A stretch of DNA of 64,000 nt from an uncultured Candidatus Sumerlaeota bacterium (GCA_964608095.1 CAZSMK010000068.1:41742-105741); one strand, 5' to 3'; numbered from the stretch's first letter, positions 12,808 through 54,734 are shown. The notes: generated by a model from the sequence alone, not told the origin. Program-made: numbers and translations.

Positions 12808-12813
12808 CTTTTT

Positions 12814-14109
12814 TTAGAGGCGGAGGCGGATGTGGAGCTTGTAGAGAATGTCCGTAATGCCGACCATTGCAAATGCAAAAAGAAGCGAGCGGAAAATTCC
12901 TAACAGCCCTTCGTTCAGATATTGATGGAGAAACGTTATCCCGAGTAAGCCGAGAATAGCGTAAAAAATGTCTGGCAGGATATAGGCGAGAAGCGGGTTG
13001 GCTCCCGCCGGTTTTATAAGTCTCGTCCACCCCACTTCTTTTCTGATGTCGATCAACCAGTAGAAAAACACATAGAGGAAGCAGCATATCCCGGAAGAAT
13101 AAAGACACCACGAGGGAGTCGCCCTGACTTTATTTATTCCATAAAGCGGTCGCAGCAAAAAGCCGGCAACACACAGCGCCACACCGAAGGAAAGAATCCA
13201 GATGATTCGTTGACGCGTATTCCTGACAGGGCTATATTCGAGAAACAGCATGCCCACGATAACGCCCGCAACAGTTATGGACGAATGTCCGCCGATTTGC
13301 CCACCGAGCCACACATAGCGCCGTATGAATCCGAGAAAGGACAATGCGCCGCTTTCGTCGCCGATATAGAGCAGTACCAAAAGTGCCAGAAAACCCATCA
13401 TCGCTTCGATATGTTTTCGAAAAAGGAGATATCCCGCACATGAGGTCAGATACGCCCAACCGATCAAGCCAAGAATCCCCCACCAGCTGGTACGCATCCA
13501 GATGACGTCGTCACCGCTCCCGCCGCGATAGAGAACCGCGGTAGCAATCAAGAGCGCTACCCCGAAAAATCTCAATGTTCTAAAGAGCGGTTTTAGATGT
13601 TCCTTTCCGCGTGGATATTGATTCCATACGAGGATTACACCCACGAACATCATAAAGACCCAGAGGTGTTTGCTCATAATAGCTGCAGACTTGTTATAGG
13701 TATACATATTAACCATAAATACGCCGATAACAAGCAGGGCGAAAGAACGTATTACAATATGTCTCCATATTTTCAGAAGCGAATCACCTTTGTCGCGGCG
13801 TTTTTTTATAGCGAACGGGATCGCCATACCGACAATAAAAAGGAACGCCGGAAACACCACATCTACAAACGTCATGCCGTCCGTCTCGGTGGGCATGTGT
13901 TTCATCCACCACGGGACTCCACGCACGTTACCGAGATCATTGACAAAAATCATTGACAGGATGGTGAGCCCCCGGAAGACGTCGATCGAAACCACGCGCC
14001 CCTCATGCACAACGTGCTGGACTCTTTCTTCTGTTTTGTTCATACTCCTTACACGATGCTTAAAACCAATATGAAAGAGAGATGTACGCATCACTGAATA
14101 TATATTCAA
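12814..14109 (-). CDS. Heparan-alpha-glucosaminide N-acetyltransferase-like (HGSNAT/DUF1624-DUF5009) polytopic membrane acyltransferase
   Basis: 431 aa, about 11 TM segments. N-terminal RVVSIDVFRGLTILSMIFVN matches the HGSNAT TM1 signature (R..S.D.FRG......M.FVN). Start uncertain: TTG 14109, ATG 14091 or ATG 14043. Confidence 0.7.
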   Translation of the reverse strand: MNIYSVMRTSLFHIGFKHRVRSMNKTEERVQHVVHEGRVVSIDVFRGLTILSMIFVNDLGNVRGVPWWMKHMPTETDGMTFVDVVFPAFLFIVGMAIPFAIKKRRDKGDSLLKIWRHIVIRSFALLVIGVFMVNMYTYNKSAAIMSKHLWVFMMFVGVILVWNQYPRGKEHLKPLFRTLRFFGVALLIATAVLYRGGSGDDVIWMRTSWWGILGLIGWAYLTSCAGYLLFRKHIEAMMGFLALLVLLYIGDESGALSFLGFIRRYVWLGGQIGGHSSITVAGVIVGMLFLEYSPVRNTRQRIIWILSFGVALCVAGFLLRPLYGINKVRATPSWCLYSSGICCFLYVFFYWLIDIRKEVGWTRLIKPAGANPLLAYILPDIFYAILGLLGITFLHQYLNEGLLGIFRSLLFAFAMVGITDILYKLHIRLRL

Positions 14110-21407: not shown

Positions 21408-21412
21408 ATCAA

Positions 21413-23437: not shown

Positions 23438-23693
23438 TTGTCTTCTCCTTTCATTGGAACAAAAGATTAACACGGATTTTCCGCAGACAACCTTACATCC
23501 AATGCATGGGAATTTAAATTAAACAGCCTGAACACCCTCAATTGCAAGGTTTTTCGAAAGCGGTAACATTTGAAGATGCCTGGAATGATTCTTTGTTAGA
23601 CTTCAACAATAAGCCCAATCTTATTGGAAAGCGATTGGTGTAACGTGTAACTGACAAGAGGTGAACAAGGACTTCTCGTTGAAGGGAAGTTAT

Positions 23694-28756: not shown

Positions 28757-29470
28757 ATGCTTAGCGGCTTGACAAAACAGGAACAACACATACTCCTTAT
28801 CCTCATAATAATTATCACGGCAGGATTGGGATTCCGTCACATTCAAGAATCCAGAGACAAAAACCTTGTATACATTGACACTACCGGACAAGATATACCA
28901 GAATCTTCTCTTTCCGGCGTGGATAAAAGCGCCGATGCGACGGGTTGGAATCTTTCCGGCAGCGCAGGAACAAAAAGCCCGGATACCTCTTCCTTGGTAC
29001 CGCCGAAAAAGGATATTAACACCGCAACCGTTGAAGACTTCGACGCAGTGCCCGGAATTGGAAAGACACGGGCTCAGGCAATTATTCAGTATCGTGACCG
29101 GATGGGTGGATTCAAATCGCTCGAACAGGTGAAGGATATAGCCGGCGTGGGTAAAAAAATGTTCGCTCTCCTGGAGAACAATTTTTTCGTTGAAGAGGAA
29201 ACTCCCGCTCGTGCCGCTGATGGATATCCTGATCAGGCGCCACCGGCTGCGCCGCAACAAACGAGTTCAGCGCACGGTTTTGTCAACATCAATACCGCGT
29301 CGGTTCAGCAGTTATGCACCCTTGAAGGAATCGGGGAGACGTTGGCTCAGAGAATTATCGAGTACCGGGAGAAGTATGGTGGATTCAAATCCATCGAAGA
29401 GTTAAAAGACGTACACGGTATCGGCGATGGCAAATTCTCGTTAAACAAAGACAGGATTACGATTTATTGA
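28757..29470 (+). CDS. ComEA-like DNA-binding protein with two helix-hairpin-helix modules
   Basis: 237 aa. N-terminal TM anchor. Two repeats of INTA(T/S)VE/QQL...GIGKT/ETRAQ/LAQRIIEYR...GGFKS(L/I)E(Q/E)(V/L)KD(I/V).GIG, the ComEA HhH signature. Confidence 0.7.
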   Translation: MLSGLTKQEQHILLILIIIITAGLGFRHIQESRDKNLVYIDTTGQDIPESSLSGVDKSADATGWNLSGSAGTKSPDTSSLVPPKKDINTATVEDFDAVPGIGKTRAQAIIQYRDRMGGFKSLEQVKDIAGVGKKMFALLENNFFVEEETPARAADGYPDQAPPAAPQQTSSAHGFVNINTASVQQLCTLEGIGETLAQRIIEYREKYGGFKSIEELKDVHGIGDGKFSLNKDRITIY

Positions 29471-31125
29471 TTTCAGTCTTCATGAAAAAAAATGTCGTTA
29501 TATGGGTGTGCGTTACCCTTCTGGCGATTCTCAATTTCCCTTATTCCGTTGCCGTCTATAACCATATAGGGGAGGATGCCTTTATTACCTTCAGATATGC
29601 GGAGAATCTCGTTGAGGGAAAGGGATTTGTCTATAATCCGGGCGAACGCATCGAAGGTTACTCCAACTTTTTATGGCTTATTCTCCTCGCCTTCTTCTAC
29701 TGGTTGGGATGCAATATTATAGTGGTCTCCAGGATACTCGGCGCTGCTGCGAATTCCGCATTGATGTTCGTCGTCACCCTCGCCCTCCTGTCCCTTATTA
29801 GAACATGGCGAGGAGAAAAGAACAAACTGCATCCTCTCCTGCTTGTATTTCCTGCAATCCTCGTGTTCTTTAATCCGATGCTCCACTACCACGCTGACCG
29901 CGGTCTGGAGACCTGCTTTTACCTGTTGCTTCTCGCTCTTTCCGGATTTTTCGTAATAGAACGTAACTTCATCGCAGCGGGAGTAGGGTTTGCCGCAGTT
30001 GCTTTTACCCGTCCTGAAGGATTCTTATACGCTGGACTTGCAGGTATATTCATCATGTGGCTTCTCGTTCTCGATGTCCGCTCAACCCATAAACCATTCG
30101 ACCTTCGAGCCTTTCTCAAATTTTCTGTTCCTTTCATCGTCATTTTCGCATCGTTCCTTATATGGCGCCGTCTTTATTTCGGTTACTGGCTTCCCAATAC
30201 GGTGTATGCAAAGGTCAGCAAACTCAATTTTTACTACAGCCCGAGCACAGGACTTCTGTGGCAGTTTTTAAAATCATGGTCCTTTCTTCCCCTTGTAGCG
30301 ACGGCGGGAGCACTATTAATTGTTCTGAATGAGAAGAACTTCTTACTTCGATGGAAAATGCTCTTCCTGCTATCAATGGCGTTCTTTGTGCTTCTCTATA
30401 CAATCGGAATCGGCTATATCCTGGCTGCCCCTTTTCGCCACTATGTTCCATCGATTCCTTACTTCATTGTACTTCTGGGCTTTTGCCTGTTATATGTTCG
30501 AGAAAAGATAAAGCCTGAAACCCGAAACGTCACGATTCCGGTTCTCGTACTTATTATATGGGGTATGAACTTTTACACATATAACAACCTCGATATGCCA
30601 CGCTCGCGGTTGCATGTTCGCACCTTCGACTTCCTCCGGCAATGGGAGTTCGATGAACGGTGGCAATGGTATCGCGAGCCGCCGATATGGCTTGCGGCTG
30701 AAGCAGGCAGATGGGTTCATGAGAACCTTCCCCACAACGCCCTCCTTGCTGCCGACCAGATGGGTCAATTCGGGTATTATTCCCGTCATCACATTATTGA
30801 TACGCTGGGGTTGATGGATACCGAGATTGCCCATAAAGGCTATTCGACCGAGCTGCTGCTGCGGCGCAATCCCGATTACGTGGTCTGGTTTGGCATGAAC
30901 GGCGAGCCCGTGCTTCCCCAGTTTCAACAAACCACCGAGGCGCCGGCGTTCAAAGCACATTATAAACTCGCCTATATTTTACGCGCACGCAATGAAATCG
31001 ACCGGTCGGAATATCTTGTTTACGCCCGACGCGATCTGCTAAACGAGGAGCAGTTGACCGCACCGCCGGAGTATATACTCCTTGGCCTTGATAAGGAATC
31101 ATTCATCCAGCGATGGCGGATATAA
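29467..31125 (+). CDS. Polytopic membrane protein, GT-C-like glycosyltransferase fold (ArnT/PMT-like), function unknown
   Basis: 552 aa, about 12 TM. Acidic first-loop motif HIGEDAFITFRYAENL. The ATG at 29482 is probably the real start (TTG 29467 overlaps the comEA-like stop). Confidence 0.45.
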   Translation: MISVFMKKNVVIWVCVTLLAILNFPYSVAVYNHIGEDAFITFRYAENLVEGKGFVYNPGERIEGYSNFLWLILLAFFYWLGCNIIVVSRILGAAANSALMFVVTLALLSLIRTWRGEKNKLHPLLLVFPAILVFFNPMLHYHADRGLETCFYLLLLALSGFFVIERNFIAAGVGFAAVAFTRPEGFLYAGLAGIFIMWLLVLDVRSTHKPFDLRAFLKFSVPFIVIFASFLIWRRLYFGYWLPNTVYAKVSKLNFYYSPSTGLLWQFLKSWSFLPLVATAGALLIVLNEKNFLLRWKMLFLLSMAFFVLLYTIGIGYILAAPFRHYVPSIPYFIVLLGFCLLYVREKIKPETRNVTIPVLVLIIWGMNFYTYNNLDMPRSRLHVRTFDFLRQWEFDERWQWYREPPIWLAAEAGRWVHENLPHNALLAADQMGQFGYYSRHHIIDTLGLMDTEIAHKGYSTELLLRRNPDYVVWFGMNGEPVLPQFQQTTEAPAFKAHYKLAYILRARNEIDRSEYLVYARRDLLNEEQLTAPPEYILLGLDKESFIQRWRI

Positions 31126-42737: not shown

Positions 42738-42825
42738 AGAAGCGTCCTCAGAATGTAGTAAGCGGAAACCTCGAGTGATCGGCGATGGGTAACGGATTTG
42801 GGGTTGATCTCAGAACAAATCAGAC

Positions 42826-42888
42826 TGATCGGTCCGCTCCGACCGATACGACCAATCCGCCCTATCCGACCGATCTGCCCGATACCTG
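42826..42888. repeat. Degenerate short tandem repeat (CCGAT/CCGATC units) upstream of tRNA-Leu
   Basis: gatcggtccgctccgaccgatacgaccaatccgccctatccgaccgatctgcccgatacc. The reverse-strand reading gives the GRIGRIGRIGR low-complexity frame. Confidence 0.5.
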
Positions 42889-43001
42889 AGATTCTCCCCA
42901 CTAATCTCCCTGTTTCCCGCCTCCAACTTAAATGCCCGCCTCACTTCCTTCCCGCTTGACCCTTAGCAACGCTCTGTGTTATAAAATATTACTTCCTTTG
43001 T

Positions 43002-43090
43002 GCCGGAGTGGTGGAATTGGCAGACGCGCCGGACTCAAAATCCGGTGGGGTTCACCCCCCGTGAGGGTTCGATTCCCTCCTCCGGCACCA
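43002..43090 (+). tRNA. tRNA-Leu (anticodon CAA), class II with long variable arm, genomically encoded CCA
   Basis: Acceptor gccggag/ctccggc. D-arm gtgg..aattggcag. Anticodon stem ccgga/tccgg with loop ctCAAaa. Variable arm tggggttcacccccgtg. T-arm agggttcgattccct. Ends ..a-cca. Confidence 0.9.
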
Positions 43091-43513
43091 GATTTGTTTA
43101 TACCTGTCCGAGCAAAGTGTGCCCGAGGCAGAGCATGTAAGCTCAAAGGTACCCCCCTTAATAGAAAAACCTCTTCCGTGACAGGTTCTTATACGTATTT
43201 GATAATGTGTAGGAAACGTTAGGCGCATTATGCCATCGTGTAAGAGCACATTTTCTATTGACGAGAGAAGGTCTGGGGTGATTAAATGGAAATGAAAACC
43301 ATTTTCAATAAGACAATGCGCTCAGTCCTTTGCAGTGCGAAATTGTCTTAGTTGTTTAGATAAACGACTTTATCATAATAGCACGGGTTACTTTTGACAA
43401 AGAGATAGCAAGGCGAGAAAATATAATATAACAAAACGATGCAGGGCTTTAACACCGGAGCTCTTTTACTTTACACATCGTTTAAAGAGAGTAACATATT
43501 TAGGGAGGAGTGA

Positions 43514-44443
43514 GTGATTATGCGAAATCACCACAAAAACGTTTTAGCCGGCACGATGAGGGTATCGGCTATTCATACCGGGTGGATGAAAAGAATGACG
43601 CTGCTTTCCTCGATGTGCCTGCTCGCTATCGCTATTACACTCAGTTCTTTTGCCGAACAGGCGTTTAAAACGCGCTCTTCTACAACCACTGCAACACAAG
43701 GGCTTACCTCATTAACCATTACTATCGTTTATGACAACAACGAGTATGACAGGCGATTAGAGACCGCCTGGGGCTTTTCCTGCCTGGTGGAGGGATTGGA
43801 AAAAACCATCCTGTTCGACACGGGCGGCGAGAGCTCGATGTTGCTTTCCAATATGGATACACTCGGGCTTGACCCGCAGAACGTGGACGTAATCGTCATT
43901 TCACACCGTCATTATGACCACGTCGGTGGCTTGTCCGGCTTCCTGGAAAAAAACCACAACCTTACTGTCTACTTACCCGAGTCCGTTCCTCAAAACGTCA
44001 AGACCAACGTAAGTCAGTCAGGTGCACACCTTATCGAGGTTCATAATCCGACAAAGATATGCGAAAATGTATATTCAACAGGAGAACTGGGAACCGATAT
44101 ACAAGAACAATCACTAATACTCACAACAAGCCATGGCTTGATCGTGATAACCGGCTGTGCCCATCCCGGTGTCGCACACATAGTCAAAGAAGCCAGGAGA
44201 CAGTTACAACGCGATGTCTATTTAGTTCTGGGAGGGTTTCACCTCTCAGGAACGTCCGCCGGGAAAATAAAAGACATCGTTAATAAAATCAAGCAAGAAG
44301 AAGTTGAATTTGTAGCTCCTTGCCACTGTTCCGGTGATCTCGCTCGGAATCTCTTTAAGGAGGCGTATGGTAAAAATTTTATCCAGGCAGGCGTAGGTAA
44401 AAAGATAGAGATAGATTTCAGTAAGGCGATTACAGAAAAATGA
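43514..44443 (+). CDS. Secreted MBL-fold metallo-hydrolase
   Basis: 309 aa. Signal peptide. HRHYDHVGG (HxHxDH). Downstream conserved H/D (GCAHPG, CHCSGD). The ATG at 43520 is the better-spaced start after GGGAGGAG. Confidence 0.65.
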   Translation: MIMRNHHKNVLAGTMRVSAIHTGWMKRMTLLSSMCLLAIAITLSSFAEQAFKTRSSTTTATQGLTSLTITIVYDNNEYDRRLETAWGFSCLVEGLEKTILFDTGGESSMLLSNMDTLGLDPQNVDVIVISHRHYDHVGGLSGFLEKNHNLTVYLPESVPQNVKTNVSQSGAHLIEVHNPTKICENVYSTGELGTDIQEQSLILTTSHGLIVITGCAHPGVAHIVKEARRQLQRDVYLVLGGFHLSGTSAGKIKDIVNKIKQEEVEFVAPCHCSGDLARNLFKEAYGKNFIQAGVGKKIEIDFSKAITEK

Positions 44444-44497
44444 GATGTACCCGTCACCTTCACAAGGAGAAACACTCGTAAGAAAGGAATCTATGCC

Positions 44498-45520
44498 TTG
44501 ATACAAAACTTACTTCAACAAAAAGTACATAGCGCCCGAGATGAAGGTATGCGCCTCGTCGCTCCCCTACTCGGATATCCGGGACTCAATATGACGGGAA
44601 GTACGGTCAAGCTTGCCCAGCAGAACTTCGGCGAACATTTCCGCGTGATCAAGTCTATTGCGGAACGGTTCGAACCGGATTTGATTTTTCCCTTGATGGA
44701 CTTGTCCGTTGAAGCAAATGCATTGGGTCGCTATACCATCTTTCCACAGTTGGAAACACCCGTGGTAGTCAAGGCTACATTTTCGCTCGATGAGCTGAAC
44801 CAAAGGGAGGACATCAATATCTCTTTCGATACACGACTTCTCGGCTATGTCGAGACCATGAAGCTAATGTGCATCGGTCTCCAGGATTCAATCATGAAGG
44901 GAGCATACGTCACCGGCCCCTATTCTCTTGCCGCGCTCATCATGGGCTCCGACGATGCGGCGATTGCGACTGTCATGCGACCCGATGAACTTCATACCGT
45001 CTGTCAATTTACCACAGAGAAAATACAGGAATACGTGAGCCTCCTCATCGCGGCGGGTGCACAAGTCATTTGCATTCTCGAACCGAGCGCTGTCATGCTC
45101 GGGCCACAGCCCTTTTCCGAGTTTTCTGCACGATATGTGCACCACATCATTGAAAGCTGCAAGTACACCGGCGTAGCCACGATTTACCATACCTGTGGAA
45201 ATACGATGCACTTATTGGACAAAATGGTTGAGTCCGGCGTGACCGCCTTAAGCCTTGATTCTGAAGCCATCGGCGTAGACCTTCCTGCCGTTGCAAAGAA
45301 GCTGCCGCCTGATGTCATCATCATGGGCAACGTGAATCCCACGGGTGTCATTCTCAACGGTTCGCCCCGGGATGTAGAAGCAGAAGTGAGCGACCTCCTG
45401 CAACGGATGGCATCCTATCCGAACTTTATCCTCAGCACCGGGTGTGACCTGCCTCAGGATGTTCCATTGGAGAATATCGACGCATTCATGCGCGCGGGCA
45501 GGCACTACCGCATGAATTGA
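44498..45520 (+). CDS. Uroporphyrinogen-decarboxylase-family protein, MtaA/CmuA-like (putative corrinoid-dependent methyltransferase)
   Basis: 340 aa. URO-D fold length and spacing. Lacks the HemE RQAGR motif. N-terminal region resembles the MT2 (methylcobamide:CoM methyltransferase) subfamily. Confidence 0.6.
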   Translation: MIQNLLQQKVHSARDEGMRLVAPLLGYPGLNMTGSTVKLAQQNFGEHFRVIKSIAERFEPDLIFPLMDLSVEANALGRYTIFPQLETPVVVKATFSLDELNQREDINISFDTRLLGYVETMKLMCIGLQDSIMKGAYVTGPYSLAALIMGSDDAAIATVMRPDELHTVCQFTTEKIQEYVSLLIAAGAQVICILEPSAVMLGPQPFSEFSARYVHHIIESCKYTGVATIYHTCGNTMHLLDKMVESGVTALSLDSEAIGVDLPAVAKKLPPDVIIMGNVNPTGVILNGSPRDVEAEVSDLLQRMASYPNFILSTGCDLPQDVPLENIDAFMRAGRHYRMN

Positions 45521-45600
45521 TAATACGGCAGACACAACCGAACCGGCTTAAAAGGTTTCTTATAAGGATGCATTTACCTTGAAGCAAAGGAGGTCAAGAC

Positions 45601-45867
45601 ATGATTGAAGTAAAAAAGAGAACCGACAACGAATTTTTAGTGACCGTAAGTGATGAGGGCACCAGAACTGAGCATATCGTAACGTTAGACGATGCGTATT
45701 ATGAAGATTTAACCGGTGGTAAAATAACCAGAGAAGAACTTATTAAAAGGGCGTTTCAATTTCTATTGGAAAGAGAATCAAACCAATCCATCCTTTCAAA
45801 ATTCAACTTGAAAGTCATAAACACTTATTTCCCGGAATTTGAGCATGAGATACGCTTGAATAAGTAA
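45601..45867 (+). CDS. Hypothetical small protein
   Basis: 88 aa. AAGGAGG 7 nt upstream. No recognisable motif. Confidence 0.35.
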   Translation: MIEVKKRTDNEFLVTVSDEGTRTEHIVTLDDAYYEDLTGGKITREELIKRAFQFLLERESNQSILSKFNLKVINTYFPEFEHEIRLNK

Positions 45868-45975
45868 GGCAAGAATAAAGGGATATGGAAAATAACAGCG
45901 ATCATAAATTGAAATGAATAATTGTTATTGGTTTTATCGAAAGCCTTCAATTGAAAGATTCGAGGAAATCAGCAC

Positions 45976-46674
45976 ATGTGTAGTTACTATCCAAAATCAA
46001 AAGTCCAGATTAAGGGATTTTTCGCACGTCATTATGATGCTCTATTGAATATATTCACCGCCGGCTTATACCCTTCGTTCATAAAAAAAGCGGTTGAAAA
46101 AATGCACATCAACCCTTCCGACAGAATTCTTGATTTAGGTGCAGGCACCGGAAGAAACGCTTGTTTAATGATGAAATATCTCTCCCCGGACGGTGAATTA
46201 ATTGCACTCGATATATCAAAGGAAATGATTTCACAATTCAAAAAGAAATGCGCGCGTTTCCCTAATGCTCGTATCATCAAGGCAAGAATCGACAAATCTT
46301 TAGACTGGAGTGATGCGTTCGATAAAGTTTTTATTTCTTTTGTTCTTCACGGCTTTCCTCAGGAGGTCAGAGAACAGATTATAAAGAACGCCTTTACTGC
46401 TTTAAAACCCGGGGGAGAATTTTTCATTCTCGACTATAACGAGTTCTCGCTCGAGAAAAAGCCCTTTTATATACGGATTCCCTTTAAATCTTTTGAATGC
46501 CCTTACGCCTTTGATTTTATTGAAAAAGATTGGAAGCATCTATTAGGGGAAGAGGGTTTCGGTAAGTTCGAGGAGCATCTGTTTTTCGCAAAATCTGTAC
46601 GGCTGCTCAAGGCACAGAAAATACCCCTTAGACAAGACTATTCCGATGATTTTACCAGAAAGGAAACAATATGA
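45976..46674 (+). CDS. Class I SAM-dependent methyltransferase (UbiE/COQ5-like)
   Basis: 232 aa. Motif I ILDLGAGTGRN. Post-II LKPGGEFFILDY. UbiE-like YD.L.N.F..G N-terminal pattern. Confidence 0.7.
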   Translation: MCSYYPKSKVQIKGFFARHYDALLNIFTAGLYPSFIKKAVEKMHINPSDRILDLGAGTGRNACLMMKYLSPDGELIALDISKEMISQFKKKCARFPNARIIKARIDKSLDWSDAFDKVFISFVLHGFPQEVREQIIKNAFTALKPGGEFFILDYNEFSLEKKPFYIRIPFKSFECPYAFDFIEKDWKHLLGEEGFGKFEEHLFFAKSVRLLKAQKIPLRQDYSDDFTRKETI

Positions 46675-47087
46675 AGAACAGCGAACAAGGGTTTGAATTG
46701 TCAGTAGCTTTTGGCACAGACGACGGCAGGCATCTGAACAAAGATCATGTGGGAATGGCGAAGTATTTTTACGTTTACAAGTTTACTGATTCTAAAGAGG
46801 AATTCATTGAGCACAGAGAGAACAAGAAGTATAAGGGCGACGAATCGATGAAACACGGAGATCCCAAAAAAGCTAAAGCAACCGCCTCCGTGTTAGAAAA
46901 TGTCGATGTCATAGTCGGAAGACGATTTGGCCCCAACATAACAAGGTTACTAAAGAATTTTTCCTGCGTAATTGCGCGGGTAGATAGAATAGACGAGGCA
47001 ATCCCAATTATACACGATAACATCGAATTGATAATAGTGGAATGCAACAAGGTGGAAGATAGAAAACATTTGGTGCTGAGTGTTTGA
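46671..47087 (+). CDS. NifX/NifB-C-terminal-like dinitrogenase FeMo-cofactor-binding domain protein
   Basis: 138 aa. HVGMAKYFYVY ... VDVIVGRRFGPNITRLLKNFSCVIA matches the Nitro_FeMo-Co domain pattern. ATGA overlap with the upstream MTase. Confidence 0.6.
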   Translation: MKNSEQGFELSVAFGTDDGRHLNKDHVGMAKYFYVYKFTDSKEEFIEHRENKKYKGDESMKHGDPKKAKATASVLENVDVIVGRRFGPNITRLLKNFSCVIARVDRIDEAIPIIHDNIELIIVECNKVEDRKHLVLSV

Positions 47088-47155
47088 AAACACATCTTTA
47101 CCGGCTCAAGAAATGAGAAATTTGATAATATCGTCACCAGCGGAAGGAGGAAACG

Positions 47156-48622
47156 ATGAATTACGAAGGCAAGGCGCTGACCATCGCCGGCTCCGATTCA
47201 GGAGGAGGAGCCGGGATTCAAGCGGACTTGAAAACATTCCAGACCTTTAACGTGTTCGGTATGTCTGCCATAACATCTGTAACGTCACAAAATACAACAG
47301 GGGTGCGTTCTATTCATAACGTACACCCCGACATTGTGGGTGATCAGATAGATATGATCATGACTGATATGGGAACTGATGCGGGTAAGACCGGCATGGT
47401 CTCAACAAAAGACATAATAGAAATCGTGGCTGAAAAAATCGAAAAATACCGCATCGAAAAATTGGTCGTGGACCCCGTTATGGTTGCAAAGAGCGGAACG
47501 CGTCTCCTTCAACAGGATGCAGAAAAGGCCCTTATAGAAAAACTATTACCGACCGCTCTCCTCGTAACCCCTAATGTTTTTGAGGCGGAGATACTGAGCG
47601 GTACAACAATCCGCGGAATCGAGGACGCCGAGAAAGCGGCGGGCATCATCCAGGGCAAAGGGGTAAGGTTAGTCCTTTTGAAAGGCGGTCACCTTCCCGG
47701 CGAAAAGGCAATTGATATCCTGTTTGATGGAGAAAAGTATAGTTACTATGAATCTGAAAGAATCGACACACAAAATACCCATGGAACAGGCTGCACGTTT
47801 TCTTCAGCGATAACCGCCGGATTATCGAAAGGGTTGAATGTTCACAACGCAATCAAAGTGGCGAAAGATTTCATTACAAGAGCCATACGAAACGCACCGG
47901 ATAATATAGGTAAAGGGCGGGGTCCTCTATATCATAATATTAAGCCCGCGGAGGTCTCGACTTTTGAAGAATATGCTGAAGATTTTGATAGGTGGTTTGA
48001 CCATAATAAGATCGTTTTTGAATCTGAACTGCTGGCGGAACAACATTTTTTAAGAGACCCTAAAGAGGCGGTGAGTATTGGAGTGGGAAGCGGATTATTT
48101 GCTTCGAGATTGGGCATTACCTATGGGGTAGAACCTTCGAAGGAGATGGCTAAGTTGGCGGAAAAACGCGGGATTAAGGTGAAGATAGGCACTGCTGAAC
48201 GTATCCCTTTTGAAAATGACCGATTCGATACGGTACTACTGAGTACGGTACTCTCCTATGTAGATGATCCACAGAAAGCTATAGAGGAGGCTTTCCGTAT
48301 CTTGAAACCCAATGGACATGTTGTTGTTTCGTTTCTGGCAAGAGAAGGTTCTTATGCCATGATGTATGATCTGGCATATCTGAGAGGAAAGCACGACCCC
48401 CTCACTGCCCCTAAATATCCTTATCCCATCGAATTCATTAAAAATGCTCATTGGCTATCTAAAAGCGAGGTTGAGCATCTTTTGAAGGAAGCCGGGTTTG
48501 TTGATTTAAAATATGTGCAAACATTTACAAAACATCCCAGATATACCAATGACATGATAGAAGAACCAATAGAGGGATACGAAAAAGGCGATTACATCGT
48601 TGTTCAAGGGAGAAAACCATGA
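47156..48622 (+). CDS. thiD: Hydroxymethylpyrimidine/phosphomethylpyrimidine kinase ThiD fused to a C-terminal class I SAM-methyltransferase domain
   Basis: 488 aa. Residues 1-260 are ThiD (GSDSGGGAGIQADLKT, VVDPVMVAKSG, HGTGCTFSSAI). Residues 280-488 are a Methyltransf_11-like domain (SIGVGSGLFASRLG, ILKPNGHVVVSF). Confidence 0.75.
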   Translation: MNYEGKALTIAGSDSGGGAGIQADLKTFQTFNVFGMSAITSVTSQNTTGVRSIHNVHPDIVGDQIDMIMTDMGTDAGKTGMVSTKDIIEIVAEKIEKYRIEKLVVDPVMVAKSGTRLLQQDAEKALIEKLLPTALLVTPNVFEAEILSGTTIRGIEDAEKAAGIIQGKGVRLVLLKGGHLPGEKAIDILFDGEKYSYYESERIDTQNTHGTGCTFSSAITAGLSKGLNVHNAIKVAKDFITRAIRNAPDNIGKGRGPLYHNIKPAEVSTFEEYAEDFDRWFDHNKIVFESELLAEQHFLRDPKEAVSIGVGSGLFASRLGITYGVEPSKEMAKLAEKRGIKVKIGTAERIPFENDRFDTVLLSTVLSYVDDPQKAIEEAFRILKPNGHVVVSFLAREGSYAMMYDLAYLRGKHDPLTAPKYPYPIEFIKNAHWLSKSEVEHLLKEAGFVDLKYVQTFTKHPRYTNDMIEEPIEGYEKGDYIVVQGRKP

Positions 48623-49278
48623 AAATCTCAGAACGGCTACGAAAGGATGCAGACCATATATGGAAGAGAATATTTGAACATCCATTTGTGGTGGAACTCT
48701 ATAGTGGCGCGTTACCAATAGACAAGTTCAAATTCTATATTCTTCAAGACTACAACTATCTCATTTCTGCAATAAAAAACTTCAACATAATTTGTTCCAG
48801 GGCGGAGTCGGTAGATGCAATAAAAGAGCTGGTCGAGATAATACATCTCGAAGCGGTCAGCGAATTCGAGGGCTACGAGACATTTCTTGGAAAACTGGGA
48901 TATACGATAAAAGATGCGGTCAATGTCGAGCCGAGTTTTGTAAACATTTCATACGTGAGCTTTCTTCTATCTACAAGCTCGTTGAAATCTTTCGGGGAAT
49001 CTCTCGCCTCCGTTCTTCCGTGTTTCTGGTCTTATGCCGATATCGCGGAATATCATAAAGACACATTGAAAAAGAACGAAAACGGATTATATGTAGAATG
49101 GGCTTCAGTATATCTGGCAGAATCTTATATCGATTTAGTCAACAAATTTAAAATGCTGGTAGATAACGTCGGCGACGAGACCCCGTATGAAAAATTAAGA
49201 GATACATTCATGACCGCAAGCAGGTACGAATATATGTATTGGGATGCGATGTACAACATGCATTCCTGGCCTGTTTAG
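48619..49278 (+). CDS. tenA: TenA/THI-4 family thiaminase II (aminopyrimidine aminohydrolase)
   Basis: 219 aa. HPFV..L..G.L....F..Y..QDY N-terminal pattern. C-terminal Y..M.W motif. ATGA overlap with the thiD fusion. Confidence 0.75.
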   Translation: MKISERLRKDADHIWKRIFEHPFVVELYSGALPIDKFKFYILQDYNYLISAIKNFNIICSRAESVDAIKELVEIIHLEAVSEFEGYETFLGKLGYTIKDAVNVEPSFVNISYVSFLLSTSSLKSFGESLASVLPCFWSYADIAEYHKDTLKKNENGLYVEWASVYLAESYIDLVNKFKMLVDNVGDETPYEKLRDTFMTASRYEYMYWDAMYNMHSWPV

Positions 49279-49353
49279 AGCCATGGTTAAATCGCCATAA
49301 CAAATGACGATATGCAGGCGCTATTTAATTTTATGATAATGTGAGGTTGAAAC

Positions 49354-50319
49354 ATGACAAACAATCCGAAAATGTTGGCGTTTGGTCCTGTTCCATCAAG
49401 ACGTCTGGGGCATAGCATGGGAATAAATAACATCCCGCCTAAAATCTGTACCTATTCCTGTGTCTACTGTCAGGTAGGAAGAACCATGAATATGCAGGTT
49501 AAGCGGAGGGCATTTTATAAACCGGAAGAAATTGCCCAAGCCGTTGAAGAAAAATTAAAAGAAGCAAAAAAGCGGGAAGAACGTGTAGACTATCTCACTT
49601 TTGTACCGGACGGAGAACCCACCCTGGATGCCAATCTCGGTCGCGCGATCGAACTCTTGAAACCTCTCGGGGTCAAGATTGCGGTTATTACGAATGCATC
49701 CCTTATCTGGCTCGAGGATGTCAGACGCGATTTGCTTAAAGCGAATTGGGTATCTTTGAAGGTGGATTCTATCAATGAAGAGGTCTGGCGAAGGATTAAT
49801 CGTCCTCACCGATCTTTACATCTGGACTCGATTTTGGAGGGAATGCTCGAATTTGCTGAAAGTTTTCACGGGGAGTTGGTAACGGAAACTATGCTCGTCA
49901 AAGATGTTAATGACAGCAATGACACTATCAAGGAGATAGCGGATTTTTTACCCAAACTCAAACCCGCCATAATTTATTTATCTGTGCCTACAAGACCACC
50001 GGCGGAAAAAGGGGTACAACTCCCCGACGAAAAAACCATCAATGAATCCTATCAAATACTCAGTGAAAAAAATGAACACGTTGAATATCTTATAGGGTAC
50101 GAAGGAAACGCTTTTGCGTTCACGGGAAATGTCGAAGAAGACTTGTTGAGCATAACATCGGTGCATCCCATGAGAGAAGACGCCGTAAAAGGGTTCATCT
50201 CGAAGGCGAACGCTGATCTGTCTCTTATTGATAAGCTGATCGGCGAAGATCGCCTCATCGAGACGAAGTATAGAGGGAAAAAATTCTATATAAGGAGGCT
50301 GCCACGATCACGCTTTTAG
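49354..50319 (+). CDS. Radical SAM enzyme, small, family undetermined
   Basis: 321 aa. CTYSCVYCQ (C-x3-C-x2-C) at residues 32-40 after GPVPSRRLGHSMGIN. Only three cysteines in total, so no auxiliary cluster. Confidence 0.75.
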   Translation: MTNNPKMLAFGPVPSRRLGHSMGINNIPPKICTYSCVYCQVGRTMNMQVKRRAFYKPEEIAQAVEEKLKEAKKREERVDYLTFVPDGEPTLDANLGRAIELLKPLGVKIAVITNASLIWLEDVRRDLLKANWVSLKVDSINEEVWRRINRPHRSLHLDSILEGMLEFAESFHGELVTETMLVKDVNDSNDTIKEIADFLPKLKPAIIYLSVPTRPPAEKGVQLPDEKTINESYQILSEKNEHVEYLIGYEGNAFAFTGNVEEDLLSITSVHPMREDAVKGFISKANADLSLIDKLIGEDRLIETKYRGKKFYIRRLPRSRF

Positions 50320-50476
50320 ATCGTCGCGTCTTTCTCTAATAGCGACATCCATATCCATACAATAATCTTCGATTCCCATCTTCTTTGCCCCATATTCTCG
50401 AGCACGCGTCGGCGGTTCATCTCGAACAGTAACGACTCATAGAGGATTTTAAACCTTACTATCAGGGAGAGAAATA

Positions 50477-51109
50477 GTGTCGGAAATTGATCGTCATACC
50501 GAGAAGGTGGCCGGAAAACCCGGCATTTTAAAAATGGTCAAGGAAGATATTCTAAGACTTTTAAGTGAACGCAAAGGAAAGGTCTCGTTGAATAGTGTAA
50601 AAGAAGAAATCAGGGTAATCTATTCTTGTATACCAAAAGCAATTGAGGATCTGGAAAAAGAGAGGCTTATTCAATACGAGCAAGGTTTCCTTGAATTGAC
50701 CGATGAGGGAAGAATAAAAGCAAAAGATGTTTTAAGAAAACACCTCGTCTTTGAAAATTACTTTAAACAGAGCAGATCCGAAAAAGAGGCGCATGAAATA
50801 GCCCATATTCTCGAGCATTATGTTTCCCGGGAAGTCATCGACAAAATAATAAAACTATCTACCTTCAAAAAAGAAGGTATCCCTCTCACAGAAGTTAAAC
50901 AATACCAGAAAGGTCTCGTCACCGATATCATGATTTCAGATGATACTGTTTTTGAAAGACTGGTCAGCATGGGAGTGTTGCCCGGCGAAAATATCATGCT
51001 TCTAAGTGAACTACCCCATACCGCCATCGTTGAAATAAAGAATAAAAAATTTGCTTTAGATAAAGACATCGCGAAGAAGATCAAGGTGTTACTACATGAA
51101 GAATCTTAA
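50477..51109 (+). CDS. DtxR/MntR-family metal-dependent transcriptional regulator with C-terminal FeoA-like SH3 domain
   Basis: 210 aa. GTG start. LTDEGRIKAKDVLRKHLVFENYF and EAHEIAHILEHYVS match the DtxR metal-site/dimerisation region. C-terminal GLVTDIMISDDTVFERLVSMGVLPGENIMLL is a FeoA-type SH3. 14-bp overlap with feoB. Confidence 0.65.
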   Translation: MSEIDRHTEKVAGKPGILKMVKEDILRLLSERKGKVSLNSVKEEIRVIYSCIPKAIEDLEKERLIQYEQGFLELTDEGRIKAKDVLRKHLVFENYFKQSRSEKEAHEIAHILEHYVSREVIDKIIKLSTFKKEGIPLTEVKQYQKGLVTDIMISDDTVFERLVSMGVLPGENIMLLSELPHTAIVEIKNKKFALDKDIAKKIKVLLHEES

Positions 51110-52982
51110 CATCCTCCTGGTCGGTCAACCGAATGTGGGCAAATCATCGTTGCTTAACGCATTGGTCGGTCCAAGGGTAGTGGTATCTAATTATCCGGGA
51201 ACCACCGTTGAAATTACCCAAGCCAAAAAGGTGTTTAATGATACAACCATCAATTTTGTTGATACTCCGGGAATATATTCCATATCCGACCAAAGCGAAG
51301 AAGAAAAAGTTACTGAAAAGGCTTTGTTCGAAGGAGACGTAGATGGAGTAATAGTCATTGCCGATGCCACTTCTCTTGAAAGAAGCCTTTATATGGCTTT
51401 GCAAGTATTGGAATCTCGAATCCCTGTCGTTTTAGCCCTTAACTTCATAGAACAAGCCCAAAAGAGGGGTATCAACATTGAGTATAACAAATTGGAAATG
51501 CTCCTGAACATTCGGGTGGTTCCTGTAAATCCATTAACCCGGAAAGGCATACATGAGCTTTTACATACCGTATCCGGCATCAAAGAGACGATTGAAGACG
51601 GCTTTAAAATTGAATACGATGACCATATAGAAAACGCCATACATAAAATCTCCGCCCACGTACAAGGGGATTTGCCAAAACGATTTATTGCGGTTCGGGC
51701 CCTCGAAGAAGACGAGGATTTCTATAAATATCTCGATAAAAGGGAAATTATCAAAGAGGTTAAAAAGGAATTAACAGATCACCCGAGAGTTGCAGAAGAT
51801 ATATGCATTATGAGGTATGGTACGGCTTCATTCATCGCCGGTAAGGTAACCGACATTATTCCCCTCAAGGATCAAAAGGGATTTGAAGAGAAAATCGACA
51901 GCGTTCTCTTACACAAAATCTTGGGCCCTTTTGCCACCGGTCTTTTTCTGCTCCTTACCTTCGGTATCTTGTTATATCTCGGCAATTCAATTCAAGAGAT
52001 TCTCATGAGCCAGACCGAAAACCTTTTGTTTTCTTTTGGTGAAAGAGAACAATCATTCTTTTCTTTAGTTTTGACCCATGGCTTAACCGGTGTTGCTGCG
52101 GGTGTTTCTATTGCTTTACCTTATGTATTCTTGTTTTATATACTGTTAGGCTTGTTGGAAGATATAGGCATCCTTTCCAGATTTATCGTTAATGCAGAGA
52201 GGCTTTTGAGACTATTAAGGCTTCCGGGAAAATCGTTTATTCCTTTGGCATTGGGCTTAGGATGTACCGTTCCGGCAACAAGAGCTTCCAGAATCCTGGC
52301 AACTAAAGAGGCACGATTTTATACCGCCTCTTTATTTGCGTTTGTTCCTTGCTCCAGCAGGATGGCTATAATTATGGGAATAGGCGGATTTTACGGCGGT
52401 ATTAAACTGGCTTTTTTTATCTTCGCTTCTTTGATTGGCGCCGGGCTTATCTGGATTTTTTCTATGAAAAGAATCTTCCATATAAAAAGTGAACCGCTTC
52501 TCTTGGAACTTCCACCTTATAGAATGCCCATATTGAGCAATCTTCTCGCTAAAAGCTGGATTAGAATGAAGGATTTCGTGTACCTGGTCATACCACTCTT
52601 AATCCTCGGGGGGGTACTCTACGGGGTTTTAAATGGCTTCGGCCTTACCGACATCATAGTGGAGCCGCTCTCACCGATTTCCTCCTGGTTGAGTTTACCG
52701 GCTGTTGCCGTTATCCCGTTGGTATTCGGATTCTTACAAAAAGATTTGACCGGGGCGATGCTTATCTCAGTCCTGGGTATTAATATATCTTCAGCGCTAA
52801 CACCTCTTCAAATTTATACATTTGCAGTAGCAACCACGCTGGGGATTCCATGCATAATTGCGGCAGGAATGCTCATTAAAGAATTTGGATTCAAAAAAGC
52901 GATTCTTTTAACAGTAATATCAATACTCTACGGTATTTTATTTGCCGGCTTAGCCTGGAGAATAATCTCGCTCTTTGTATAA
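51096..52982 (+). CDS. feoB: Ferrous iron transport protein B
   Basis: 628 aa. N-terminal G-domain GQPNVGKSSLLNAL, DTPG. Gate motifs. Polytopic C-terminal permease. Confidence 0.9.
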   Translation: MKNLNILLVGQPNVGKSSLLNALVGPRVVVSNYPGTTVEITQAKKVFNDTTINFVDTPGIYSISDQSEEEKVTEKALFEGDVDGVIVIADATSLERSLYMALQVLESRIPVVLALNFIEQAQKRGINIEYNKLEMLLNIRVVPVNPLTRKGIHELLHTVSGIKETIEDGFKIEYDDHIENAIHKISAHVQGDLPKRFIAVRALEEDEDFYKYLDKREIIKEVKKELTDHPRVAEDICIMRYGTASFIAGKVTDIIPLKDQKGFEEKIDSVLLHKILGPFATGLFLLLTFGILLYLGNSIQEILMSQTENLLFSFGEREQSFFSLVLTHGLTGVAAGVSIALPYVFLFYILLGLLEDIGILSRFIVNAERLLRLLRLPGKSFIPLALGLGCTVPATRASRILATKEARFYTASLFAFVPCSSRMAIIMGIGGFYGGIKLAFFIFASLIGAGLIWIFSMKRIFHIKSEPLLLELPPYRMPILSNLLAKSWIRMKDFVYLVIPLLILGGVLYGVLNGFGLTDIIVEPLSPISSWLSLPAVAVIPLVFGFLQKDLTGAMLISVLGINISSALTPLQIYTFAVATTLGIPCIIAAGMLIKEFGFKKAILLTVISILYGILFAGLAWRIISLFV

Positions 52983-52988
52983 ATTGGG

Positions 52989-54734
52989 TCAGGGCGTGCG
53001 CTTCACATAAATCTCTTCGCAATTCCACAACACTCGATGACGCAACGCCGTCGGTTTCACATTTCCGTAAGTATTTCGTACCGCCACGTAAGCAATAGGA
53101 TTCACGGTATAGATCATGAACTGTTCATCCGCAAGGATACGCTGTACCTCAAAGAAATACTCTTTCTGCTTCTCAAACTCCGGCTCTTTAATCAATTTGT
53201 TCATGAGTTCGTCAATTCGTGCCTCTGCCTCAGTCGCCGGCGTCTCTTGTTCTGGATACCATTCATGAGTTCTACCGGAAGAAAGATAGACGTTAAGACC
53301 GTGAACCGGTTCAACTCCACCTGTCAACCCGAGCAGGCATGCTTCATAATCGTAAGAATCAGCCAGTCTCACCACCAAAGTGTTGAAGTCCACCATCTTC
53401 ATTCGCGCATCCAAACCTATCTCGCGTAAACTATCCGTAATAATGTTTCCTATTTTTTCGCGATACTGGTTTTCGCGGTTCGTAATAATGTTGAACGAAA
53501 TTTTATTCCCTTGCGGGTCTTCCCGGATACCGTCTTTATCGCGGTCTTTATAATTCAGGTTATCGAGAAGGGATTTCGCTTTTCCCGGATCGTATTGAAA
53601 CTTGGAGACATCGGGATTATGCCATCGTTTATCGGCGGGGCTTACAGGACCAAACACCGGAACCGCACGCCCACGGTACACCGCCCTTATAATACCGGGT
53701 CTGTTGACTGCATGCGATACCGCGCGCCGAAAATCTCGCTCCCGAAACCACTTCAACTTTTTGGGGGAAACAAAGGGCTTTCCCGTTTCAGTATTGGTTT
53801 CTGGATTAAGGTTGAACCAGAGATGATTGGTTCCCAACGACGGTCCAACATCGTAAATCGTATAATTACCCTTTTTTTCATCTTGTTTTAATGTCAGGTA
53901 CTGATCTCCGAAAAAATCGTAAAAATCCGTCTCGTTCGCCTGAAATTTTACCAGCATGGAGTTCGTGTCCGGAACATTGAGGAAAATAATATTCTCGAGA
54001 TAGGGGAGTCGCGTACCCGCGCTATCGACTTTCCAATAATAAGGATTAGGCTTAAGTACGGTTTTCTCGCCGGAAACGTAGTTTCCAAGAGTAAACGCTC
54101 CGTTCACCACCATATCCTCAGGTTTTACATCGAGATTGTAGGTCTGAGTGAATGTCCCCTCTTTGAGCGCCCTCTCGAGCTTATGTTTGGGAATGATGGG
54201 CGCGCCGATAACGGCTATAAATGGTCCATAGGTATCCGGCAATACGACCTTCACGGTGAACGCATCAATCTTCTCTACCTTGAAATATTTACCGTCAACC
54301 TGGAGCAGCGATTTCAGCGCTGTGGGAACATTTTCATTATATATAACGTCAAACGTGAACACCACGTCGTCCGCGGTCAACGGTGTACCGTCAGACCACC
54401 TTACTCCACGCCGAAGATGAAATGTCCATATCTTGTAATCCTCCGAATGTTCCCATCTTTTGGCAAGTCCCGACTCATATTGTTGTGTATTATTGTCAAA
54501 TTCAACAAGAGCCGAATACATTCGGTTGAGAATATCGCTCGAAGAGGTCTCGTTTGTTGTAATGACGTTGAATGTCTTGGGATCGCCGAGGGCGGCAGAT
54601 ATTATACTCCCGAACTTTTTACCTTTCTTGATATCGGTCACTACGAACAGGTCCTCCGTGGCTTTTTCCTGTGCACAAATCGATGAAAAAACCATACTGC
54701 CAAGGAGGATTAAAAGAATTGTCTTGCTCCTCAT
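52989..54734 (-). CDS. ABC transporter substrate-binding protein, family 5 (oligopeptide/nickel type)
   Basis: About 581 aa from MRSKTILLILLG (signal peptide; GAGG 9 nt upstream). SBP_bac_5 length and motifs (WSDGTPLTADDVVFTF). Confidence 0.8.
   Translation of the reverse strand: MRSKTILLILLGSMVFSSICAQEKATEDLFVVTDIKKGKKFGSIISAALGDPKTFNVITTNETSSSDILNRMYSALVEFDNNTQQYESGLAKRWEHSEDYKIWTFHLRRGVRWSDGTPLTADDVVFTFDVIYNENVPTALKSLLQVDGKYFKVEKIDAFTVKVVLPDTYGPFIAVIGAPIIPKHKLERALKEGTFTQTYNLDVKPEDMVVNGAFTLGNYVSGEKTVLKPNPYYWKVDSAGTRLPYLENIIFLNVPDTNSMLVKFQANETDFYDFFGDQYLTLKQDEKKGNYTIYDVGPSLGTNHLWFNLNPETNTETGKPFVSPKKLKWFRERDFRRAVSHAVNRPGIIRAVYRGRAVPVFGPVSPADKRWHNPDVSKFQYDPGKAKSLLDNLNYKDRDKDGIREDPQGNKISFNIITNRENQYREKIGNIITDSLREIGLDARMKMVDFNTLVVRLADSYDYEACLLGLTGGVEPVHGLNVYLSSGRTHEWYPEQETPATEAEARIDELMNKLIKEPEFEKQKEYFFEVQRILADEQFMIYTVNPIAYVAVRNTYGNVKPTALRHRVLWNCEEIYVKRTP

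Follow-up and report, generated by a model that had tools for sequence, protein, structure and literature searches.

Pyrimidine salvage by TenA and ThiD, as known from the yeast THI20 ThiD-TenA fusion (PDB 3RM5) and from the actinobacterial ThiD-TenA fusions (PRK14713), is the described system nearest to the locus reported here. Thiamine and its precursors are widely traded among microbes, and many uncultured anaerobes rely on salvage. A gene set of related appearance is the bacimethrin cluster of C. botulinum, which holds a methyltransferase, a ThiD-type kinase and a thiaminase and is defined by a thymidylate-synthase-like cytidine monophosphate (CMP) hydroxymethylase and a glycosyl transferase/N-glycosidase (PMC12345177). 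Here, a stretch of 64,000 nucleotides from an uncultured Candidatus Sumerlaeota bacterium (GCA_964608095.1 CAZSMK010000068.1:41742-105741, referred to as the window) was analysed. Coordinates are given in the numbering of the window, and L-numbers denote the related loci used for comparison. The feature is an eight-gene, 7.4-kb block at 45.6-53.0 kb, and not the whole interval from a tRNA gene to feoB that an earlier note had delimited. The block joins a fusion of ThiD with a methyltransferase, TenA and a radical S-adenosylmethionine (SAM) enzyme to a DtxR-type regulator and the ferrous-iron transporter FeoB. We read it, with a probability of roughly 0.55, as an iron-linked thiamine-pyrimidine salvage module that would have been horizontally exchanged.

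The fusion protein consists of a ThiD domain (residues 7-260, TIGR00097) and a methyltransferase (MT) domain (residues ~276-488, with a Methyltransf_11 match at 307-391). More than 100 full-length homologues with 50-80% identity were found, under labels that include Cloacimonadota, Aminicenantes, Acidobacteriota, Latescibacteria, Thermoplasmatota and the cultured Firmicute Schnuerera. Among solved structures, PDB 1VLM is nearest to the MT domain (full-length match, E=6e-39). The GxGxG motif for SAM binding is invariant in the MT subfamily, and an acidic residue is conserved. The subfamily is sharply bounded; in an exhaustive HMMER search two representatives at 50% identity scored above 300 bits and the next matches at most 192 bits. 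The TenA of the window carries the Cys motif LPCFWSY, which aligns with PDB 1UDD and 2GM7 (E=1e-58 to 1e-63), the closest structures being 2GM7/2GM8 and 1UDD. A literature search on methyltransferases fused to ThiD or THI4, and on TM1293, found nothing relevant.

To survey the module, an alignment of the MT domain only was scanned against a metagenome collection and combined with context look-ups, and 92 loci, forming 46 clusters at 90% identity, were obtained. Of the 42 clusters in which enough sequence is available, 41 have TenA as the next gene downstream of the MT. Fusion to ThiD is seen in 37 of these 42, and the MT is fused or adjacent to Thi4 in 5, namely as Thi4-MT fusions (L042, L053, L060) or as a free-standing MT between Thi4 and TenA (L054, L045). 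The gene order is TPK - ThiD-ThiN - Thi4-MT - TenA - ThiM in L042, which also has a ThiC-like match, and ThiD - Thi4 - MT - TenA - ThiC in L054. Upstream of the MT-containing operons in L007, L042, L053 and L054, thiamine pyrophosphate (TPP) riboswitches were found that exceed the Rfam gathering score. Because its operons in these four related loci sit behind a TPP riboswitch, the MT subfamily is assigned to the thiamine pathway, and as judged by genomic linkage it is a predicted enzyme of that pathway.

In soil contigs the MT follows Thi4 without a TenA. Upstream of the free-standing MT in L094 (3105-3200) and L081 (978-1205) only partial Thi4 matches were seen, which may reflect decay of Thi4 or low conservation at these places. 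A DeoC-family aldolase-like gene was observed directly upstream of ThiD-MT in three clusters (L004 8681-9733, L009 8904-9956 and L034) and directly downstream of the radical SAM gene in L099 (8996-9916), linking the radical SAM gene and ThiD-MT even when they are non-adjacent.

The radical SAM enzyme (rSAM) that follows TenA in the window has exactly three cysteines, Cys32, Cys36 and Cys39 (CX3CX2C), as its earlier description as a 3-Cys enzyme had it. The N-terminal signature GPVPSRRLG...CX3CX2C is common to the family and is accompanied by a C-terminal helical/beta domain. The family has at least 8000 homologues, and members 63-76% identical occur across Chloroflexota, Sumerlaeota, Omnitrophica and Thermoplasmatales labels, annotated by JGI with a COG category only. 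All curated models scored far below cutoff (viperin 53.9 against 180, TYW1 32.6 against 317.95, MoaA likewise), and no sequence relative was found in the PDB. An AlphaFold model (pLDDT 80, pTM 0.81) matched generic rSAM cores only, those of PFL-AE, NifB, viperin, TYW1 and RlmN. In 11 of 32 clusters, which span bacteria and an archaeon, TenA is immediately followed by the rSAM gene, with gaps of ~5-80 nt.

The genomic tie of the rSAM to TenA and ThiD bears on a further proposal, namely a new ThiC-independent route to hydroxymethylpyrimidine (HMP) in which rSAM and MT would build a 2-methyl aminopyrimidine, TenA would convert it to HMP and ThiD would phosphorylate the product. Radical chemistry, methyl transfer, amine-to-alcohol hydrolysis and a kinase would formally suffice for this, and the trio of ThiD-MT, TenA and rSAM is conserved in bacteria and archaea. 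We nevertheless consider the route highly improbable, in view of the ThiC gene that shares the operon of MT and TenA in L054, the ThiC-like match in L042, the two thirds of modules from which the rSAM is missing and the common occurrence of the rSAM without thiamine genes.

Some further observations concern the rSAM. In L011 the gene after TenA (12196-13215) is an rSAM of another family (Fer4_12 type, 22% identity) with a second copy 7 kb away. In L098 (7333-7911 and 10000-10326), from a Limnocylindrales-labelled metagenome-assembled genome (MAG), a 192-aa class-I methyltransferase precedes an rSAM orthologue with 72% identity, and a Thiamine_BP (PF01910) protein is encoded 1 kb away on the other strand, another thiamine hint for the rSAM. 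Short stretches in L030 (2485-2613) and L100 (2178-2321), several kb from the intact gene, encode just ~45 N-terminal rSAM residues (63-65% identity) and look like remnants of rearrangement.

The iron genes were linked to the modules that contain the rSAM. Among the 29 module clusters of at least 8 kb, a FeoB, Fur, DtxR or ZIP gene was present in 7 of the 10 clusters with an rSAM and in none of the 19 without (Fisher p=7.7e-5, a value that overstates the evidence since the seven iron-linked loci are non-independent and fall into about five arrangement types). With the trio again standing for ThiD-MT, TenA and rSAM, the window and L018 share the order trio - DtxR - FeoB, and in L018 a FeoA-like open reading frame (ORF) overlaps the start of ThiD-MT by 17 nt. 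L076, L075 and L069 have Fur - FeoB2 - 300-aa protein - trio - KaiC-like - ArsP_2 - LarA_N-like - DtxR - FeoB, with operon-like gaps of 13 and 28 nt in L076. L030 has FeoB - trio, L012 (Thermoplasmatota, an archaeon) has DtxR - ZIP - trio, and L100 has DtxR-FeoA - FeoB - rSAM - two ArsP-like genes - ThiD-MT - TenA. The combined thiamine and iron theme noticed earlier in the window thus recurs in five gene orders on unrelated contigs. A functional thiamine-iron link is argued because repeated reshuffling keeps the genes together, and to judge from this gene order evidence the thiamine-pyrimidine/iron pairing is a real module, apparently shared by many anaerobes.

Counterparts of all eight block genes occur in L076 in nearly the same order. 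The FeoB of the window contains the FeoB_N, two Gate, FeoB_Cyto and FeoB_C domains, and its homologues (59-75% identity) lie next to the module in L018, L069 and L076, there paired with homologues of the DtxR-type regulator (47-65%). In this regulator a Fe_dep_repr_C domain (45 bits) and a FeoA/SH3 domain (48.5 bits) were found and the N-terminal helix-turn-helix family was not detected; no NCBIfam equivalog model comes near its cutoff (highest score 51, cutoff 350). In L100 a DtxR-FeoA protein of the same architecture by Pfam stands before FeoB. Homologues of p88, an 88-aa protein, are 57-60% identical and lie upstream of the module in L030, L075 and L076, and also in L077 by tblastn. The second methyltransferase of the block, MT232, has CpaM, RquA, UbiE and ArsM as its best NCBIfam models, all far below cutoff; homologues (64-65%) followed by a NifX-like gene are found in L075 and L076. 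A homologue of the NifX-like protein (61%) is encoded after the rSAM in L037. Accessory genes recurring near the module encode metallo-beta-lactamase (MBL) fold, YggS-like, KaiC-like, ArsP, DUF5320 and DeoC-like proteins.

Around these accessory genes, it was also observed that the 61% NifX-like protein of L037 (9485-10336, minus strand) is fused to a Cys-rich N-terminal region, and that a free-standing DGC-domain protein is encoded beside the MT232/NifX pair in L076. A KaiC/RecA-like ATPase of ~250 aa, absent from the window, stands beside the module in 7 clusters (L076 12281-13033, L047, L051, L069, L092, L096 and L030).

In an alternative reading, rSAM, NifX-like protein, MT232, p88, DtxR and FeoB would form a metal or Fe-S unit, one that matures or handles a metal centre under a metal-sensing regulator, for instance, and ThiD-MT-TenA would be a passenger inserted into it that is functionally unconnected. 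We regard this as unlikely, though as the likeliest of the alternatives. The iron genes correlate with the rSAM and not with MT-TenA as such, and in L100 it is the rSAM that comes immediately after FeoB, ThiD-MT lying beyond it. L101, from a Sumerlaeota-labelled MAG, has the order ArsR - 105 aa - NifX-like - rSAM with no thiamine genes, and the rSAM of L015 has NifU-like and FeS-domain proteins on its flanks and MBLs and DUF5320 in the vicinity. On the other side, repeated accidental insertion is an unlikely cause for an rSAM placed so closely behind TenA in 11 clusters of bacteria and an archaeon, and iron transporter genes are operonic with ThiD-MT itself in L018, L030, L076 and L012. Moreover, a three-Cys rSAM cannot hold NifB-type auxiliary clusters.

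A cofactor-maturation pathway had been suggested for the block as well. A NifB-type maturation role of the rSAM was rejected, as the enzyme has three Cys only and no auxiliary-cluster ligands. The NifX-like protein is not a NifX equivalog (TIGR02663 nifX, 26.6 against a cutoff of 112). A looser Fe-S or metal link of the rSAM is possible.

The coordinates of the genes are collected in Table 1. Both ARAGORN and Rfam confirmed the tRNA-Leu(CAA) named in the earlier note, and its ten co-oriented genes and their domain calls were reproduced by ORF, Pfam and NCBIfam analyses. The ATGA overlaps it reported are present at two sites, 46671 (MT232/NifX-like) and 48619 (ThiD-MT/TenA), where the genes of each pair are translationally coupled, and are joined by a 14-nt overlap of DtxR and FeoB. 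Its description of the genes as tightly packed is accurate for these three overlapping pairs and less so for the remaining gaps, which are 55-157 nt. By Pfam, the interval is flanked by IspD before the tRNA and by a host SBP_bac_5 gene after FeoB, on which FeoB converges with a spacing of 6 nt. Approximately seven tandem 9-nt units with a consensus near GACCGATCC were noticed at 42823-42885, in the IspD-tRNA spacer just upstream of the tRNA. Elsewhere in the window, two large ORFs at 16908-18986 (692 aa) and 29467-31125 (552 aa) did not match any Pfam family at E≤1e-5.

Table 1. Features of the interval from tRNA-Leu(CAA) to FeoB in window coordinates.
Feature	Coordinates	Strand	Evidence
tRNA-Leu(CAA)	43002-43090	+	ARAGORN; Rfam RF00005 56.3 bits
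MBL-fold hydrolase	43514-44443	+	Pfam PF00753 49 bits
UroD/MtaA-like	44498-45520	+	PF01208 186.5 bits
p88, 88 aa, no Cys, first gene of low-GC3 block	45601-45867	+	no Pfam or NCBIfam family
MT232, class-I SAM methyltransferase	45976-46674	+	Methyltransf_25/31/11 matches
NifX-like, Nitro_FeMo-Co domain	46671-47087	+	PF02579 37.1 bits (cutoff 26.3)
ThiD + methyltransferase (MT) fusion	47156-48622	+	TIGR00097 342.5 bits (cutoff 204.95); Methyltransf_11
TenA, thiaminase II / aminopyrimidine aminohydrolase, Cys class	48619-49278	+	TIGR04306 134.4 bits (cutoff 130)
COG0731-type radical SAM (rSAM), CX3CX2C	49354-50319	+	PF04055 66.5 bits
DtxR-family metalloregulator with C-terminal FeoA/SH3-like domain	50477-51109	+	PF02742, PF04023
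FeoB ferrous-iron transporter, last block gene	51096-52982	+	TIGR00437 351 bits (cutoff 315.65)

The boundaries of the block were evident from composition. From p88 to FeoB (45601-52982), the eight genes have a GC content at third codon positions (GC3) of 0.38-0.475, compared with 0.544 +/- 0.047 elsewhere, or 0.43 against 0.54 overall (Mann-Whitney p=3.8e-8). A low-GC stretch had been claimed from the tRNA onwards; it is real and confined to these eight genes, since by per-gene GC3 it begins at ~45.55 kb, ~2.5 kb downstream of the tRNA. The contrast in overall GC that hand counts had put at 33-43% against 57% exists in a milder form, with 41.5% in the block, 47.4% at 43091-45550 and 48.4% in the rest of the window, and the 57% sample at 20.4 kb had been taken from the most GC-rich part of the window. 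That part, a stretch of ~55% GC with GH3 and GH20 glycosidase genes at 18975-23473, is also the strongest tetranucleotide outlier of the window. By tblastx, L018, L076 and L030 match the window within 45.6-53.0 kb only, and the homology ends at ~52975.

Two genes separate the tRNA from the block, MBL (GC3 0.506) and UroD-like (GC3 0.595), and both are similar in GC3 to the other 37 non-block genes. No integrase or recombinase family was found among the ten proteins at 43.5-53.0 kb by Pfam and NCBIfam, and a repeat search of 42800-53400 detected neither a second copy of the tRNA 3′ end nor direct repeats at the flanks, in agreement with what had been reported before. The block is not a tRNA-anchored island, because it starts ~2.5 kb downstream of the tRNA, lacks an integrase and an att repeat, and is separated from the tRNA by two host-like genes; the tRNA thus does not mark an island boundary as had been supposed.

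The MBL hydrolase has a signal-peptide-like N-terminus, consistent with its earlier designation as secreted, and an HRHYDH motif. Homologues with 31-49% identity occur near the module or the rSAM in L004, L014, L015, L021, L024, L033, L040 and L071. The UroD-like protein scored 112.9 bits against the MtaA/CmuA model TIGR01463, under the cutoff of 235.4, and by Pfam no corrinoid-binding protein was found among the neighbours of its gene, as already stated in the earlier note. No homologue of it was found in ~100 related loci. It was rejected as a module member on account of its host-like GC3 and its lack of co-occurrence with the module. The idea of three methyltransferase-type proteins acting together loses one member because the UroD-like gene never co-occurs with the module; MT232 and ThiD-MT remain, both within the block.

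Promoter-like and terminator-like sites occur in the window at chance frequency only, and a search for a shared operator in the intergenic regions gave nothing convincing besides recurring TGATAAT elements. These are located at 43194-43206, 47123-47135 and 49333-49345, upstream of the MBL, ThiD-MT and rSAM genes, and could be -10 promoter elements or Fur-like hexamers. The copies upstream of MBL and rSAM have TGATAATGTG in common, and L018 has a similar ATTGATAAT in front of its DtxR gene. A 16-nt sequence, CCCATATTCTCGAGCA, is repeated exactly and in direct orientation, at 50389-50404 between rSAM and DtxR and at 50802-50817 inside the DtxR gene. By chance, an estimated ~0.01 pairs of this kind would arise in 10.6 kb; the repeat may serve regulation or be a scar left by recombination.

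The history of the block was approached through its relatives. The host alanyl-tRNA synthetase shares 69% identity with its nearest relatives, among them a Sumerlaeota-labelled one, and at most 50% with those of other phyla, which makes a Sumerlaeota host probable. The ThiD-MT fusion, by contrast, has 78% identity to a Cloacimonadota-labelled protein. In a neighbour-joining tree of labelled fusions, Thermoplasmatota are nested within bacteria and two Cloacimonadota are not sisters, both in 100/100 bootstraps. This mixing of phyla and domains argues for horizontal spread. Module GC follows flank GC across 28 loci (r=0.88, mean difference +0.4 points), the exceptions being L023 and the window, where module GC is low. 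As the GC of the module tracks its flanks elsewhere, the module is not intrinsically AT-rich. The foreign look that the block had been credited with is borne out by GC3 and by the tree.

In L101 the NifX-like gene (67% protein identity) and the rSAM gene (68%) are ~40 nt apart, and each is 72% identical at the DNA level to the window genes that flank ThiD-MT-TenA. Comparison of this locus with the window reveals an insertion or deletion of the ThiD-MT-TenA cassette between NifX-like and rSAM. A horizontally exchanged, rearranging neighbourhood is the best supported account of the block, and from these comparisons we infer its acquisition.

Several points weigh against the reading of the block as an iron-linked salvage module acquired horizontally, in addition to the non-independence of the iron-linked loci given above. 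The compositional signal is modest; the synonymous-codon likelihood under host usage is no different for the block (p=0.20), and its lowest tetranucleotide correlation (~0.74) is exceeded as an outlier by 0.655 at 19.5-22.5 kb. No Fur box, DtxR box or TPP riboswitch was identified in the window. The riboswitch was absent from the whole window in two scans, at the Rfam gathering score and at E≤1, hence also from 43.1-43.5 and 47.09-47.16 kb, where the earlier note had proposed to look for it. Two thirds of the MT-TenA modules have neither rSAM nor iron genes nearby, and the rSAM occurs without thiamine or iron genes in the Chloroflexota loci L013 and L014. The link of the rSAM to thiamine may be indirect, because its family is far wider than the module. 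An iron-sparing role also sits uneasily with the Fe-S cluster that a radical SAM enzyme requires.

The same compositional results, the scarcity of iron genes at most MT-TenA loci and the commonness of every family in anaerobes would fit ordinary, unrelated genes brought together by chance, namely two for thiamine salvage, a housekeeping rSAM and a Feo operon, with the low GC as gene-specific composition. This we hold to be improbable. Eight gene families recur together in L076, and subsets of them in five orders; the co-occurrence of rSAM and iron genes is significant by the Fisher test; overlaps or very short gaps join Feo genes to ThiD-MT in other loci; and the homology boundary coincides with the GC3 boundary.

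The function of the iron-linked salvage module may be depicted as follows, on the basis of family membership and gene order. TenA would hydrolyse aminopyrimidine-type breakdown products of thiamine to HMP, and the ThiD domain would phosphorylate HMP to its pyrophosphate (HMP-PP). As a leading guess, the fused MT would methylate a damaged or modified pyrimidine or a thiamine-derived substrate or leaving group, for processing by TenA. In a subset of lineages, that of the window among them, the cassette is joined to the COG0731-type rSAM, and only then is it co-located, and probably often co-transcribed, with a metal uptake and regulation unit. The version in the window comprises a DtxR-type regulator and FeoB together with the accessory genes p88, MT232 and NifX-like. 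The module might then be expressed with the iron-starvation response, so that cells taking up Fe(II) would also turn on pyrimidine salvage. De novo thiamine synthesis relies on the iron enzymes ThiC, ThiH or Thi4, and this dependence would be the rationale for pairing salvage with Fe(II) uptake.

More tentatively, and as a possibility that we rate below an even chance, the MT subfamily and the rSAM may catalyse one or more unrecognised thiamine steps, one widespread variant of which would belong to the iron-starvation regulon of anaerobic bacteria and archaea. An example of such a step would be the salvage of a modified, sulfur- or alkali-damaged pyrimidine or thiamine derivative common in anoxic sediments. 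Two enzymes, the MT subfamily and a widespread, conserved rSAM family, are genomically tied to thiamine genes and have no place in the textbook pathway. The current annotation of the fusion as a 'bifunctional HMP kinase' hides the extra MT domain. A repeated linkage of pyrimidine salvage and ferrous uptake would connect the vitamin B1 economy to iron limitation in sediments.

Compared with the bacimethrin cluster, the window also joins a methyltransferase, a ThiD-type kinase and a thiaminase, the likeness of the methyltransferases being that of a generic class-I fold. This likeness and the foreign look of the block had favoured the view of the earlier note, a tRNA-anchored island that makes or modifies a methylated pyrimidine, such as an HMP analogue or a bacimethrin-like antivitamin. 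We give this view very little credence, the least of all the readings considered. The defining hydroxymethylase and the glycosyl transferase/glycosidase are absent from the block, as the earlier note itself had recognised for a thymidylate-synthase-like domain, which Pfam did not find in any of the ten proteins. The thiaminase is TenA, of type II and not type I. Relatives of MT-TenA stand inside operons repressible by TPP riboswitches, with ThiC, Thi4, ThiM, ThiN and TPK, the block does not abut the tRNA and has no integrase or att repeat, and the UroD-like gene is unrelated to the module.

Like TenA/ThiD salvage, the window has a ThiD and a Cys-class TenA that are translationally coupled and both above curated cutoffs, and TPP-riboswitch control is found in related loci, though not in the window. 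Unlike that system, it has a SAM methyltransferase domain between ThiD and TenA that is needed by no known step, an rSAM gene after TenA and a linkage to Feo/DtxR, and no YlmB-type deformylase or ThiXYZ-type transporter was seen. The gene set thus departs from the canonical thiamine salvage operon, as had been remarked, in its dedicated MT, its rSAM and its Feo/DtxR link. The ThiD of the window matches positions 6-258 of the 450 positions of archaeal ThiD-ThiN (PRK08573) with 338 bits, below the cutoff of 528, and the C-terminal ThiN (thiamine-phosphate synthase) is replaced by the methyltransferase domain; in L042 the Thi4-MT fusion has a genuine ThiD-ThiN protein encoded before it. As in FeoAB and DtxR systems, FeoB is above its equivalog cutoff and a regulator with the DtxR metal-binding/dimerisation domain and an SH3/FeoA-like domain overlaps feoB, whereas a separate FeoA gene is missing from the window and the unit is joined to thiamine salvage and rSAM genes. 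The rSAM differs from TYW1, viperin, NifB and PFL-activase in the absence of auxiliary-cluster Cys and in having its own GPVPSRRLG motif and C-terminal domain. Finally, the 1VLM-like methyltransferases (~210 aa, with no assigned function) are related in sequence to the MT of the window and share its SAM motif, and from them the thiamine-linked MT is set apart as a separate tight clade defined by its fusion or adjacency to ThiD, Thi4 and TenA.

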